This document shows, piece by piece, positions 44,301-50,300 of a stretch of DNA of 64,000 nt. The stretch's first letter is position 1; every line of letters begins with the position of its first letter. Location of the stretch: NCBI RefSeq assembly GCF_054482595.1, contig NZ_CM137008.1; one strand, written 5' to 3'. Made by a program: the position numbers.

Positions 44301-47300
44301 GATATTGCCGTAAAACTCCGGCGAGGTGTCGAGGTTGTGGTTGTAGTAATCCAGCCCGGCGTTCGCAAGGCGCTGCGCCTGAGATTCACTCAACGTGCCC
44401 AGCGTCATACACGCCTCCAGCCCCATCGCTTTTACCCCCTGCACCATTTGTTCCAGGTACGGCATATCGCGTTCGTGGGGATTCTTCCACGCCGCGCCCA
44501 TACAGAAACGCGTCGATCCTGCCGCTTTCGCTTTGCGCGCCGACTCCAGCACCTGTTCAACTTCCATCAACCTCTCGGCTTCCAGCCCGGTTTTGTAGCG
44601 CGAGCTTTGCGGGCAGTATTTGCAATCTTCCGGACAAGCTCCGGTCTTAATCGACAGCAACGTGCTGACCTGCACCTGACGAGGATCGAAATGCTGGCGA
44701 TGGACCTGCTGCGCTTCAAACAGCAGATCCAGCAACGGTTTTTCAAATAATTCTGTGACTTGCGACAATGTCCAGCGTGGGCGGTGAGCCATGGGGCTTC
44801 TCCAAAACGTGTTTTTTGTTGTTAATTCGGTGTAGACTTGTAAACCTAAATCTTTTCAATTTGGTTTACAAGTCGATTATGACAACGGACGATCTTGCCT
44901 TTGACCAACGCCATATCTGGCACCCATACACATCCATGACCTCCCCGTTACCGGTTTATCCGGTGGCAAGCGCCGAAGGTTGCGAGCTAATTTTGTCTGA
45001 TGGCAGACGCCTGGTTGACGGTATGTCGTCCTGGTGGGCGGCGATCCACGGCTACAATCACCCGCAGCTTAATGCGGCGATGAAGACGCAAATTGATGCC
45101 ATGTCGCATGTGATGTTTGGCGGTATCACTCATGCGCCAGCCATTGAGCTGTGCCGCAAACTGGTGGCGATGACGCCGCAACCGCTGGAGTGCGTTTTTC
45201 TCGCGGACTCCGGCTCCGTAGCGGTGGAAGTGGCGATGAAAATGGCGTTGCAGTACTGGCAGGCCAAAGGCGAAGCGCGCCAGCGTTTTCTGACCTTCCG
45301 CAATGGTTATCATGGCGATACCTTTGGCGCGATGTCGGTGTGCGATCCGGACAACTCAATGCACAGCCTGTGGAAAGGCTATCTGCCAGAAAACTTGTTT
45401 GCTCCCGCCCCGCAAAGCCGCATGGATGGTGAATGGGATGAGCGCGATATGGTGGGCTTTGCCCGCCTGATGGCGGCGCATCGTCATGAAATCGCGGCGG
45501 TGATCATTGAACCGATTGTCCAGGGCGCAGGCGGGATGCGCATGTACCATCCGGAATGGTTAAAACGAATCCGCAAAATGTGCGATCGCGAAGGTATCTT
45601 GCTGATTGCCGACGAGATCGCCACCGGATTTGGTCGTACTGGCAAACTGTTTGCCTGTGAACATGCAGAAATCGCGCCGGACATTTTGTGCCTCGGTAAA
45701 GCCTTAACCGGCGGCACAATGACCCTTTCCGCCACACTCACCACGCGCGAGGTTGCGGAAACCATCAGTAACGGCGAAGCCGGCTGCTTTATGCACGGGC
45801 CAACTTTTATGGGCAATCCGCTGGCCTGCGCAGCAGCAAACGCCAGCCTGGCGATTCTCGAATCTGGCGACTGGCAGCAGCAGGTGGCGGCTATTGAAGT
45901 ACAGCTGCGCGAGCAACTGGCACCAGCCCGTGATGCCGAAATGGTTGCCGATGTGCGCGTACTGGGGGCAATCGGTGTGGTCGAAACCACTCGTCCGGTG
46001 AATATGGCGGCGCTGCAAAAATTCTTTGTCGAACAGGGTGTCTGGATCCGGCCTTTTGGCAAACTGATTTACCTGATGCCGCCCTATATTATTCTCCCGC
46101 AACAGTTGCAGCGTCTGACCGCAGCGGTTAACCGCGCGGTACAGGATGAAACATTTTTTTGCCAATAACGGGAAGTCAGCGTGAGGGTTTCTGGCTACAC
46201 TTTCTGCAAACTAGAAAGGAGGGTTTATGAAACTCATCAGTAACGATCTGCGCGATGGCGATAAGTTGCCGCATCGTCATGTCTTTAACGGCATGGGTTA
46301 CGATGGCGATAATATTTCACCGCATCTGGCGTGGGATGATGTTCCTGCGGGAACGAAAAGTTTTGTTGTCACATGCTACGACCCGGATGCGCCAACCGGC
46401 TCCGGCTGGTGGCACTGGGTAGTTGTTAATTTACCCGCTGATACCCGCGTATTACCGCAAGGGTTTGGCTCTGGTCTGGTAGCAATGCCAGACGGCGTTT
46501 TGCAGACGCGTACCGATTTTGGTAAAACCGGATACGATGGCGCAGCGCCACCGAAAGGCGAAACCCATCGCTACATTTTTACCGTTCACGCGCTGGATGT
46601 AGAGCGTATTGATGTCGATGAAGGAGCCAGCGGCGCGATGGTCGGGTTTAACGTTCATTTCCACTCTCTGGCAAGCGCATCGATTACCGCGATGTTTAGT
46701 TAATCACTCTGCCAGATGGCGCAATGCTATCTGGTATCACTTAAAGGTATTAAAAACAACTTTTTGTCTTTTTACCTTCCCGTTTCGCTCAAGTTAGTAT
46801 AAAAAAGTTGAATGTGAAACGGTAAAAACAATTAATATCAACAGCTTATAATTGATTCAGTCTAAAAAATAGACTGCATAATGCTACAAAACACAACATA
46901 TCCAGTCACTATGAATCAACCACTTAGATGGTATTAGTGACCTGTAACAGAGCATTAGCGCAAGGTGATTTTTTTGTCTTCTTGCGCTAATTTTTTGTCA
47001 ACACACTGGGTTAGCTGAATTTACAACCATGCTCAGTATCTCGATAAGCGCAGAGAAATGATGCAGTGGTGGGCGGATTGGCTTGATGAAAAAGTAGAGT
47101 GAGCGACCTTAATAACTATCGAATAGCACAAAGCCTTGCAGTCCAGTACAAAGCTTTGTGTGCATCAGTTTTGTCTTATCAACCACAGCAAGTCATCGAT
47201 CGATTGAGACTTGGATGATAGACTTCATGTCTTTGATTATTAGCTGACAAAAGAAATGTTAAAGCTATTTGCAAAGTACACCTCGATTGGCGTGCTGAAC

Positions 47301-50300
47301 ACACTTATACACTGGGTGCAACGGAATCCCAGGCGCACTATTATTTAGCTTGAACCGTTAATATTTTCCCTCCAGAATATTCTGTAAGATTACTTATTTC
47401 ATTAGCCAAAAGCGCTTTGAACATATTTCGGTCCTGCCCGAAAACAACGCCAGAAAAGAAAGTCCCAAGGTTGCGGTAGCCGCCTACGGTCGGCATACGG
47501 ATAAACAGGTAAGACGTACCCTCGTACGTGCCGGTAAACCAAGCATCATAATCTGTGAGAGATTGGTTATCACAGTGAGCAGCTCTAACTAATTTTGCGC
47601 GGGTAGAGATATTGCTGCCTACTGTATTAAGGTCATACGCACCCGATATAGGATTAAGATCTTCCCCGCTGCGTAATGTATAAATAGTCCCAATGCACCC
47701 TCGTTTCCCATACTGACCACCAACGATACGATAATACGGCCCAGCAGACTGGTCTGGATTCGGCAACGCCATATCCCGACACATAGTGGTACTGAACGTT
47801 GGTATGGTTGCCAGCCCACCAAGATTACCTAATGTAGCGAAAGTTGCAGTTTTCGTGTCGTATGAATTCCTTTGAGGCCACGACGTTTCAAACTTATTGC
47901 TGTACACGATTTCTAACTTAGCACCGTTAGTTAAACGGGCCATCGCGCCATTGAAAGTAGTGGTCGAGCTGGCAATTAGTTGCTTAATACTTACTTTAGC
48001 ATAACCAGATAGGTCAAACATGTAGCTACCTGCAGCCTGCGTTTGATCGTACAGATGTATATTATCTATCTGTAAGTTAGCCCCGGTGCCCTTAATAATC
48101 GTACCGCTGTTCTGACGTGAAGGTTGTTCACAACCTAAAGACGAAATGCTGTACGAGCCTGCGTTAAAAATATACGGAATCCCAGCGCAATCGTCAGCGG
48201 CTAATGGACCAATTTCACAATATGAGCCCGTCAACTCAAAGGCACAGTAGTTTGTTTTAAACGCGTTACATTGGGATACTACGTAGCTTGCCCCCCCATG
48301 TATATGAATACCACCATATATCCCGGTAGCGTCGGAACCTTGGACAACGATTTCGCGGATGGAAACACCAACGAAGGTATTGCCGCCAAAATACATCCCC
48401 CATTTTTGCGCAAGGATAAACAGATCACTAAATTCCTGGTATACGGCGGTATTGGGAGTGTAATACCCGTAACTATCCGTTGTATCGTCCAGGATGCGTA
48501 GTCCACGGACAACATTACCACGTTTACCCTTGTTATAGAAAACAGCGTTAATATCCTGAGTTCCTACCGCCGTTTTGCGAATAATGGATGCACGACCCTC
48601 CCCGACGAATCGGCTACCATTTGGTTGATAGTATTTCTCATTGTAAACATCTTCCAAATCGTAAAGAAGAATAGAGTCCGATATCTCATATTCGCCAGCG
48701 GGCACAAATATAGTTTTTCCCAGTTGCGCGGATACAAGCGATGCTCGATTAAAAGAGAGCGTCCAATCTGGATCTGAATCCAGTTTAAAGTCCAGTACAG
48801 AAATAGTTTCAGAGTTTTTCTGGTGTTGCGTTCGATTTACGGCCCCGTTAAATGGTTGCCGAACAGCTATCTTCGCATCATTAACAATAGTAGGACCATA
48901 GTCTTGCGCCAACTCTGACCTTAGTTGATCAGGGTCATACTTAAGCACATTCGGAAAATAGAACTGCTGTGCACCATATGCATCATAAACAGCCATAGAA
49001 TGGCCTTGCACAGTTACGAACTTGGCAATCTGTCCGTTATATACAGGATACCCGCCAGCGTTAATGATGATTGGCTGTGCAACAGGAACGTGAGAACCGT
49101 CTTCATTCTCTACATAAACCTGAATCTGGTTTTCAGGATTTACCGGGTCAGTGTCAATTTTTCCGATATAAATTTTGCCATTGGCAACCGCTTTAAAAGA
49201 ACGCGCCATAGTGAAGAGTTGCGAAGGCATACTCACTACAACATTGGCATTTATTGAATCTGTCATTTAATTTGCTCCAGATACAAGGAATCGCCGCAGC
49301 ATGGCTACGGTTGATGTTTGTTGCATACCGAAATGGTACGATTGTTGATTTGTACAGTAGGTTTTACGATGCCATTCCACCCATTTGGTGAGGCATTGAT
49401 GATGTACAGCAAATACGATGAGGCGCAGTTCCACTTCGGCATAATGCCATATTTTTTCTTTGCCATTATGCAACATTACTCCCATGAATCAGGTGTTGTA
49501 GTGCTTTAACACCTTCCTCATTGTAGCGGAATGCTTCCACCTGTTTGCTGGAATGCGCAGATTTATCCAGGAAGAACTTCCCGTACTGCTCAGTTTTGAG
49601 GTTGTTTGCGTTAGCAATGCGACCAATCTTGTTGGCCGTTACCCCAAGCTGCTCTGCAACCTCCCCTGCTGAGTAGTAATGCTCTTCTATTGCTGGAAGA
49701 GGTATTGCATTAAAACCAACGATCGGGTTGATTATGCTTGCTGCCGCAGTCTGCTTTGCTTCCGGCGCAAGATTTGGCATCAAATCGAACAGATTGGTAA
49801 CAGCTTCAACCGTCATTTTCAATGTTCGCGCCTGGCGATACTCAACAAGTCCACTAGACGATTTACCGCTTTTAATGTGCGCTTCTTGCATACTTTCAAG
49901 TTGGTCTACAAGTGAGCGGCGAACAGCTTTAGATTCACGAGCAGCCACTCGAAGGGCTTGCTTAATTGACATAACAACTTTTTCAGAAGTTGTCTTGTTT
50001 GATTTTTGAACTACGAAAATTTCGTAGTGCTCACCTTCAAGTTCATCCTTAATGCGTGCAATAAAGTCGTTATTGCGGACTTCTTTTTCCCCGCACTGTC
50101 TACGAGCATGATTGACCATCTCTAACAGGTACTGGCTATCAATGGTTTTATCCGTGACAACGGATCCGATGTTTGCTACATTCTTAAAAGTCATTAGGCA
50201 TTCCTTATGTGGTAGTAAGGGTGTGACATAGGCCGCCAGCAGCACACTGGCGGTTTTCTTTTTGCGCCGTCCGGCGCACCAATCAATGAATCCATTCCTC

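Follow-up and report, generated by a model that had tools for sequence, protein, structure and literature searches.

The segment 46704-47340 of the E. coli DNA analysed here (a stretch of 64,000 nucleotides, referred to as the window) is, with a probability of about 0.9, the attR (P-O-B') of a P22-like temperate phage, inserted by site-specific recombination of the lambda type into the ybhB-ybhC interval of E. coli, where the lambda attachment site lies. This reading draws on sequence identities, on the conservation of the protein-binding sites, on scars and on the intact attL, int and xis of close relatives, all of which were observed directly.

The junction core and its bacterial flank

The lambda core and the B' arm which the preliminary description had located between ybhB and the tailspike gene are present, as shown by alignment to the attB of E. 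coli XH990 and K-12. The window is identical at 104/104 positions (46704-46807) to the empty attB which XH990 has between ybhB and ybhC, and diverges from it from 46808 onwards, and on the B' side it also matches the attB of K-12. The identity to the empty site of XH990 ends with the 14-bp core CTTTTTTATACTAA (46794-46807, minus strand), and the 27-mer made of core and B' sequence, CTTTTTTATACTAACTTGAGCGAAACG (46781-46807, minus strand), has a single occurrence in the window, with 0 expected by chance. On the chromosomal side, the identity of ybhB and bioA was established from annotated E. coli genomes, in which this flank is 100% identical. For annotation purposes, the right boundary of the prophage is fixed to the base, at 46808. 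The features of the junction are the following:

46227-46703, plus strand: ybhB (ORF), a kinase inhibitor homologue, chromosomal gene on the bio side of attB
46704-46793, no strand: bacterial B' flank of attB, identical to the empty XH990 attB (identity through 46807)
46790-46798, plus strand: B' core-type Int site CAAGTTAGT, identical to that of K-12 and XH990 attB
46794-46808, minus strand: position of the 15-bp lambda common core, reading ACTTTTTTATACTAA where lambda has GCTTTTTTATACTAA
46802-46810, minus strand: C core-type Int site, variant CAACTTTTT (lambda CAGCTTTTT), from alignments with lambda

The 7-bp overlap TTTATAC, the extent of which follows the lambda definition, is intact at 46797-46803, and phage and bacterial DNA meet inside the attB-lambda core of the ybhB-ybhC interval. 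It is flanked by two core-type Int sites, C on the phage side and B' on the bacterial side. The difference in the core flank (caaCTTTTTT here, cagCTTTTTT in lambda) already pointed out from the sequence is real and corresponds to a single G-to-A change in the C site, the resulting variant still fitting the core-site consensus, CAACTTNNT. A private mutation was considered and rejected, since the same variant recurs in the PK8217 prophage and in four prophage contigs of IMG/VR, despite other differences between their P arms; judged from these sequences, it is a lineage variant. In the IMG/VR scan for attL, none of these four contigs was among the matches listed.

Protein-binding sites of the P arm

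From 46808 to about 46998, the window consists of a lambda-type P arm (BLAST against J02459 27472-27742: 87% identity, E = 2e-63) which carries C, H2, X2/F, X1, P2, H1, P1 and the sib/tI hairpin, i.e., the full lambda set in lambda order and spacing, and the alignment with lambda needs no gap between the core and P1. The definitions of P1, P2, H1, H2, X1, X2 and F used here are those of the lambda literature. Both arm-type sequences cited in the preliminary description, cagtcactat and aggtcactaat, occur at the place assigned to them when the segment is aligned with lambda attP:

46836-46848, plus strand: IHF site H2 TATCAAcagcTTA, with 0/9 specified positions different from lambda and four N positions different
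46871-46883, plus strand: Xis X2/Fis region, 2/13 positions different from lambda
46888-46900, plus strand: Xis X1 site, 0/13 positions different from lambda
46903-46912, plus strand: arm-type Int site P2 CAGTCACTAT (cagtcactat), 0 mismatches to lambda
46914-46926, plus strand: IHF site H1 AATCAAccacTTA, 0/9 specified positions different from lambda
46933-46943, minus strand: arm-type Int site P1 AGGTCACTAAT (aggtcactaat), 0 mismatches, invariant in 12/12 P arms compared
46947-46998, plus strand: sib/tI hairpin followed by a T run (int retroregulator and terminator), from fold and alignment, with a loop two T longer than in lambda

Differences between the window and lambda affect 3 of the 82 site positions versus 24 of the 68 non-site positions (Fisher p = 6e-7) and, across the 12 P arms, the variable columns amount to 16/82 within the sites versus 47/68 outside them (p = 9e-10). 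Matches to the arm-site consensus with one mismatch (6 observed in the window for 4.7 expected) are by themselves not above chance, and the identification of the P arm therefore relies on the perfect P2 match within conserved surroundings and on the alignment of the whole arm. The G-to-A change of the C site and the two changes in X2 relative to lambda are candidates for an effect on recombination, and as such were counted against the attR reading.

The sib/tI hairpin is located directly beyond P1, on the int-sense strand, as an extended hairpin with its T run. It folds like the corresponding part of lambda (-34.3 kcal/mol, z = -5.3), and among the 12 P arms its stem varies by no more than 1-2 substitutions. 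A scan of 46500-47500 for consensus terminators and promoters found nothing, the simple terminator search having missed the sib hairpin because its loop exceeds 8 nt, and an Rfam search of the same interval gave no match; Rfam contains no family for sib.

P22-type genes of the prophage

The P22-type structural and immI genes recognized beforehand were found again as the genes for portal, coat, gp10, tail needle, gp7/gp20/gp16, Ant and tailspike. All 17 kb of the visible prophage contain full-length late genes arranged in the P22 order, namely portal, scaffold, coat, gp4, gp10, gp26 needle, gp14, the gp7/gp20/gp16 ejection proteins and the tailspike, with PHROG matches for the P22 virion set of E = 1e-100 to 1e-270 and P22 Pfam families present at homologous loci. 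The last of these late genes converges on attR:

47341-49266, minus strand: tailspike gene with a P22 head-binding N-terminal domain (ORF and profile matches)

The immI region lies between gp16 and the tailspike, with antirepressor PHROGs at 49466-50245 and 50283-50993. Loci which encode a protein identical to that of 50283-50993 possess adjacent Arc-family genes (106 and 57 aa; PF03869), and the 106-aa ORF occurring at 51268-51588, of the same length and at the matching position, is a candidate Arc-family gene. The coat and Ant proteins are common to many unrelated prophages, mostly located at argW, and none of the complete E. coli genomes covers more than 70% of 46800-64000. With respect to its virion set and immI genes, the element may be assigned to the P22-like (Lederbergvirus-type) temperate podoviruses. 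The window ends at 64000, inside the portal gene, and the early region, terminase/pac, xis, int and attL are expected beyond it.

Scars of a displaced integration module

Between the P arm and the tailspike gene, two truncated genes surround a conserved hairpin:

47019-47102, plus strand: 3' remnant of an IntS-type (argW, CPS-53-like) integrase gene, 27 codons (IYNHAQYLDKRREMMQWWADWLDEKVE) and the stop, aligned to full-length intS of CH468 and K-12
47126-47163, plus strand: conserved hairpin of the intS-gtrA intergenic region, from alignment and folds
47256-47318, plus strand: 5' remnant of gtrA, 63 nt and 21 codons (MLKLFAKYTSIGVLNTLIHWV), aligned to the full gtrA of strain 10 and to K-12 yfdG, the remaining gtrABC being deleted

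The 84-nt intS remnant is annotated as a partial CDS in WL164 and PK8217, and the gtrA scar is shared with WL164 and with the prophage at argW in CH468. The hairpin, which probably corresponds to the intS terminator, is nearly invariant (few substitutions) in 6/6 aligned sequences, lambda included, about 40 bp of it occurring also in lambda, immediately past sib. An IntS/argW (CPS-53-type) module has left no more than the 27 terminal codons of intS, and neither an argW sequence nor an argW-type att core is present at the junction; on this evidence, an IntS/argW integration module is not functional here. Taken together, the two scars show how the lambda module displaced the argW module.

It is conceivable, though rather doubtful, that the intS remnant and the intergenic hairpin (47019-47255, partly retained in lambda) represent more than a mere scar, and serve as a shared boundary for homologous-recombination swaps of lambda-type and argW-type modules among P22-like phages with the same tailspike cassette. 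The separate idea that the lineage with CAACTTTTT marks a subtle shift in the core recognition by Int is equally tentative.

Relatives sharing the same joint and alternative explanations

The joint seen in the window (a lambda P arm and sib, a remnant of intS, and next gtrA or the tailspike) recurs in JEP4 (MT740315, Lederbergvirus), an isolated circular P22-like phage with an intact attP and an Int identical to lambda Int at 353/356 positions. Two intact prophages bounded by ybhB and ybhC, those of PK8217 and strain 10, are made of P22-type genes continuous from attR to xis-int-attL. The PK8217 prophage, with 352/356 positions of Int and 71/72 of Xis identical to lambda, displays an attL equal to lambda BOP' and an attR with the same C-site variant, and joining its attR to its attL restores an attB of 151 bp that has one SNP. 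The prophage of strain 10 similarly possesses an Int identical to that of lambda at 352/356 positions and a BOP' attL. Phage Huey (PQ850609) contains a similar segment near the tailspike gene, in which the match is limited to core and P arm and adjoins a lambda-sized xis-int pair (Int of 356 aa); the interval between attP and tailspike holds umuD-like and other small genes. The joint between P arm and intS remnant occurs in 723/5,426 complete E. coli genomes. Whole-genome sequencing of a lysogen placed the P22-like phage phiHS3 upstream of ybhC, in a preprint which also describes attB and attL PCR, excision work and mitomycin C induction (bioRxiv 10.64898/2026.05.19.726188), and the literature also mentions a prophage with gtr genes that occupies the lambda site in the ybhB-ybhC interval (PMC10304059).

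The lack of a matching attL, or an integrase of a non-lambda family, had been named beforehand as the finding that would speak against a lambda-type integration. Neither applies to the nearest relatives, since PK8217 and strain 10 both carry a lambda-type Int and a BOP' attL. By analogy, the prophage would have retained its own int and attL, and its excision may be possible. It is unlikely, even if worth considering, that attR is genuine but belongs to a defective prophage with a missing or disrupted int, xis or attL, in which case the junction would be a fossil with no further part in excision. Such elements do decay: WL164, the only complete genome that matches at least 80% of 46000-49300 and the closest match to the right end, harbors a rearranged and degraded 14-kb remnant with an int split in two, and the far end of the present prophage lies outside the window. 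Against this stand the 17 kb of full-length late genes, the intact sites of the P arm and the completeness of the PK8217 and strain 10 prophages.

A far less probable origin would be an attR inherited from an older lambda-like (siphovirus) remnant, with the P22-like element brought next to it by a separate integration or rearrangement and not itself using attB-lambda. The P arm is indeed common to lambda, 434 and many lambdoid siphoviruses, and a fragment of intS separates it from the P22-type genes, but in circular JEP4 the identical joint stands within the phage genome, with a lambda-type int and a complete attP of the phage itself alongside. Moreover, the prophages of PK8217 and strain 10 are P22-type throughout, and an argW-type att core is absent at the junction. 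Finally, a chance likeness of AT-rich intergenic DNA to lambda att is refuted, despite the chance frequency of short arm-site matches in the window, by the unique 27-mer, the E value of the approximately 200-bp P arm and the breakpoint with empty attB exactly at the core.

Proposed mechanism

Following the lambda paradigm, integration of the P22-like phage would proceed by a strand exchange within the overlap TTTATAC of attP and attB, performed by a lambda-family Int with IHF. Upon excision, the P arm would be bent by Int (at P2, C and B'), Xis (X1/X2), Fis (F) and IHF (H2), and the bent attR would then pair with attL (B-O-P'), predicted some 38-40 kb away and adjoining ybhC. In the prophage state, the sib/tI hairpin would stand at the attR end, distant from int, so that the pL-driven int-xis transcripts made after induction would escape retroregulation by RNase III. 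As to the origin of the mosaic, a lambda xis-int-attP-sib cassette replaced attP and most of the integrase gene in an argW-integrating (IntS-type) P22-like ancestor, leaving the 84-nt 3' remnant of intS, and a separate deletion removed gtrABC but spared 63 nt of gtrA.

Comparison with known systems

The region resembles the attR and int-xis-attP-sib region of lambda (J02459, about 27470-29080) by its target, the bio side of ybhC-ybhB, by its 7-bp overlap and by the order of the sites and, via the intact relatives, by an Int 99% identical and an Xis identical at 71/72 positions. It differs from lambda by the 13% divergence of the P arm, almost entirely confined to the spacers, by the C core site (CAACTTTTT instead of CAGCTTTTT), by the sib loop longer by two T and, beyond sib, by the intS remnant and P22-type genes which replace the b region of lambda, apart from the shared hairpin of about 40 bp.

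The P22-like E. coli phages equipped with a lambda module comprise JEP4, Huey, the vB_EcoP-720R6 record and the prophages of PK8217, strain 10 and E. coli 042. JEP4, PK8217 and strain 10 share with the window the tailspike, gtr or its scar, the intS remnant, sib, the P arm and the core, and theirs are accompanied by lambda-type Int/Xis; PK8217 belongs to the same sub-lineage with the CAACTTTTT C site. In contrast, the mosaic of tailspike and immI genes differs here, and gtrABC is deleted.

The argW-integrating prophages of the IntS type are represented by CPS-53 of K-12, CH468 and Kapi1-type prophages. CH468 is 95-97% identical to the window over the tailspike, the gtrA scar, the intergenic hairpin and the final 84 nt of intS, and the immI genes are common to many argW prophages. 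However, these prophages carry the full 385-aa IntS beside the tRNA-Arg gene argW, whereas the present one retains 84 nt of the 3' end of intS, a lambda-type module and another chromosomal site.

P22 and Gally have the same organisation of virion and immI genes but integrase specificities and att sites other than those found here. That P22 itself uses a different attachment site, as previously remarked, agrees with its integration at thrW (PMC2629481). Gally, a P22-like phage with an HK022-type module, demonstrates that lambda-family int modules are functional in P22-like phages; it was rejected as a lambda-att phage because it integrates at the HK022 site torS-torT (PMC9928086), and it matches only the core-distal part of the P arm.

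Significance

The proposed mosaic of P22-type morphogenesis and lambda-type integration is upheld by an attR that directly adjoins P22-type late genes, and by the recurrence of the joint in JEP4. Although real, this combination is of common occurrence in E. coli and has been documented before, and nothing about it is new in kind. It offers a clean textbook case of modular mosaicism in phages, with an integration cassette from lambda on a P22-like chassis, in which the displaced argW integrase and the lost O-antigen glucosylation operon are still readable as scars. It also predicts the site of attL, int and xis, about 38-40 kb to the right and adjoining ybhC. If the prophage is active, in-situ headful packaging, as suggested by work on related P22-like phages (bioRxiv 10.64898/2026.05.19.726188), would start at pac, traverse the late genes and attR and continue into ybhB-bio-uvrB, and this region of the chromosome could then undergo lateral transduction.

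Junction with the bacterial chromosome

The interval between ybhB and the tailspike gene comprises the following features, the P-arm sites being assigned by the site definitions of the lambda literature.

Features of the junction and of the P arm
46227-46703, plus strand: ybhB
46704-47340: intergenic space, exactly from the ybhB stop codon to the tailspike stop codon
46836-46848: H2, TATCAAnnnnTTA
46871-46883: X2/F, with two changes compared to lambda
46888-46900: X1
46903-46912: P2, CAGTCACTAT
46914-46926: H1
46933-46943, minus strand: P1, AGGTCACTAAT
47341-49266, minus strand: tailspike gene

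The chromosomal side (38500-46790), which contains uvrB, bioDCFB, bioA and ybhB, is 100% identical in several complete E. coli genomes, among them XH990, in which the site is unoccupied and ybhC directly follows ybhB. Compared to this empty attB, 104/104 bases after the ybhB stop codon match, through 46807, and divergence starts at 46808, the lambda core forming the final shared bases. CTTTTTTATACTAACTTGAGCGAAACG occurs only once in the window, at 46781-46807 on the minus strand, with no occurrence expected by chance. Since the identity ends with the lambda core and this sequence is unique, the bacterial/phage breakpoint is located inside the attB-lambda core, as claimed in the preliminary description. 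The core flank caaCTTTTTT, reported there in place of cagCTTTTTT, also proved correct by alignment with lambda. This change affects the C core-type site of Int, which reads CAACTTTTT here and CAGCTTTTT in lambda. It lies outside the 7-bp overlap and derives from the phage side; a G occupies the position in lambda, in the isolated phage JEP4 and in the intact prophage of strain 10. The variant recurs in the intact prophage of PK8217 as well as in four prophage contigs of IMG/VR with otherwise different P arms, and is therefore a lineage variant, a private mutation being ruled out by this recurrence.

The P arm and the sib/tI hairpin

The alignment with the P arm of lambda attP contains no gap between the core and about 46998 (BLAST against J02459: 87% identity, E = 2e-63), and both P2 and P1 are kept, in agreement with the lambda-type P arm and arm-type Int sites described beforehand. 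Differences between the window and lambda affect 3/82 positions within the sites versus 24/68 outside (Fisher p = 6e-7), and the variable columns of 12 independent P arms amount to 16 of the 82 positions in sites versus 47 of the 68 in spacers (p = 9e-10). This distribution of substitutions is, at the level of the lineage, the footprint of a selected recombination site and not that of a relic in decay.

Directly beyond P1, a sib/tI hairpin followed by a T run folds like the lambda segment (z = -5.3), with two extra T in its loop. The hairpin was not detected by a simple terminator scan because of its large loop, and no family for it was found in Rfam. The T run of the loop (46970-46976) consists of seven T in both the window and PK8217, versus five in lambda and six in most relatives.

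Mechanism of integration

Lambda-type site-specific recombination, with a probability of about 90%, accounts for the integration, strand exchange occurring presumably within TTTATAC. In the lambda paradigm, excision at attR requires Int bound to P2, C and B', Xis to X1/X2, Fis to F and IHF to H2, and the resulting complex pairs with attL, where the P' sites are located. All the cis elements required on attR are present in the window. The separation of sib from int in the prophage would result in a stable int-xis expression after induction. For any given element, decay into a no longer active prophage is a realistic alternative, since WL164 (NZ_CP128642.1), the best full-length match to the right end of the window among complete genomes, is a scrambled remnant. 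This remnant of about 14 kb, located between ybhB and ybhC (2100-16400 in its locus numbering), has late genes that are inverted and truncated and a lambda-type int broken into two fragments, and exemplifies the in-place decay of this prophage type.

The P22-like owner of attR

The prophage is visible over 17 kb, to position 64000, and its genes follow the P22 order: tailspike, two antirepressor-type (Ant) genes, gp16, gp20, gp7, gp14, tail needle, gp10, gp4, coat, scaffold and portal. The tailspike possesses the P22 head-binding N-terminus, and both Ant genes belong to the immI region. The idea that attR belongs to another lambda-like remnant, the P22-like phage not being its owner, is contradicted by JEP4, a circular 39-kb Lederbergvirus genome in which the P arm-sib-intS' joint lies between the tailspike gene and a complete attP and whose Int is identical to lambda Int at 353/356 residues, and by PK8217 and strain 10, in which ybhB-attR, the P22-type genes and xis-int-attL-ybhC form a continuous array. 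The isolated phage Huey also speaks against this idea, with a similar segment of lambda-sized xis and int (356 aa) and attP near its tailspike gene, the match consisting of the core and P arm only. Together with the P22-order genes, JEP4, PK8217 and strain 10 support the proposed use of a lambda integration module by a P22-type phage.

The closest relative of the junction is PK8217 (98% identity over 46809-47110, same C variant), which encodes an Int and a Xis identical to those of lambda at 352/356 and 71/72 residues, respectively, the Int being characterised by H164P, A245T, I248V and E264K. Its attL has the lambda B-O-P' sequence and, combined with its attR, rebuilds a 151-bp attB with one SNP compared to the empty XH990 site. 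The int gene and attL of the window prophage are probably located beyond position 64000, where a lambda-type attL would read ...TAATGCCAACTTAGTATAAAAAAGCAGGCTTCAACGG, followed by ybhC.

With respect to the tailspike (47341-49266), the best full-length PHROG is phrog_21710, a family of unknown function, the second best being a family whose annotation is tailspike with colanic acid-degrading activity. Its N-terminus is one residue longer (MTDSINAN versus MTDITAN), and the exact protein was not found in the contig index.

In vB_EcoP-720R6 (ON470605.1, 1-2500), a partial genome labelled Lederbergvirus, the same attR has the host genes bioB, bioA and ybhB on its left side, corresponding either to a prophage extraction with chromosomal flank or to packaged host DNA. 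In PPompW_132418 (LC567822.1), a whole attR-like unit made of about 70 bp of ybhB-side flank, core, lambda-type P arm and sib hairpin (2480-2790, about 80% identical to window 46719-47000) sits between an espO effector gene and a host-specificity gene; it belongs to the PPompW-type O157 lambdoid prophages integrated at ompW, and looks like the fossil of an aberrant, lambda-bio-like excision.

Scars of intS and gtrA

Beyond sib, the intergenic space retains remnants of two genes, the second one ending 22 nt from the tailspike stop codon.

Remnants between sib and the tailspike gene
47019-47102: 3' remnant (last 27 codons and stop codon) of a gene for an IntS-type integrase
47103-47255: intS-gtrA intergenic region
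47126-47163: conserved hairpin within this region
47256-47318: 5' remnant of gtrA, first 21 codons

IntS serves as integrase in the K-12 cryptic prophage CPS-53 and in the P22-like prophages that integrate at argW. Strain 10 shares the lambda-sib/intS' joint of the window but possesses a complete gtrABC, whereas the argW/IntS prophage CH468 shares the tailspike and the gtrA' deletion scar but has a complete intS adjoining the tRNA-Arg gene argW. From this comparison, the window phage therefore combines a lambda xis-int-attP-sib cassette, inserted within the 3' end of what was an ancestral intS gene, and a tailspike cassette already devoid of gtrABC. The gtrABC scar (window 47256-47340; CH468, about 3585-3830 of its locus; WL164, 2652-2736 of its locus) accompanies the same tailspike in the argW/IntS prophage and in the attB-lambda prophages alike, and this cassette therefore moves among phages with different integration modules.

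The hairpin of about 40 bp also occurs in lambda just beyond sib/tI (2234-2273 of its locus, J02459 about 27470-27509), as well as in CPS-53 and P22-like phages, with few substitutions among the six sequences compared. It suggests, on sequence grounds, a common ancestry of the intS-gtrA module boundary and the att-proximal b region of lambda; our guess is that the hairpin serves as a terminator.

Distribution and significance

Among 5,426 complete E. coli genomes, 723 contain 80% or more of the P arm-sib-intS' segment, and a P22-type tailspike adjoins ybhB in most of the best matches listed for a wider query. A prophage that carries gtr genes and occupies the lambda site, between ybhB and ybhC, has already been described (PMC10304059), and a 2026 preprint places the integration site of the P22-like phiHS3 upstream of ybhC and describes attB/attL PCR together with experiments on mitomycin C induction and on lateral transduction (bioRxiv 10.64898/2026.05.19.726188). 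Gally, a P22-like prophage, is integrated at the related HK022 site (PMC9928086), and the diverse integration modules of P22-like phages (thrW, argU, argW) have long been documented (PMC2629481). The combination of a P22-like phage with a lambda integration module is thus common and not new, and the feature is of an already known kind. The window mosaic itself is a new individual, because no complete E. coli genome covers more than 70% of its visible prophage. As a whole, the initial observation is confirmed and its interpretation supported. Integration modules could be exchanged by way of the shared intS'/intergenic remnant, which offers about 300 bp of homology.
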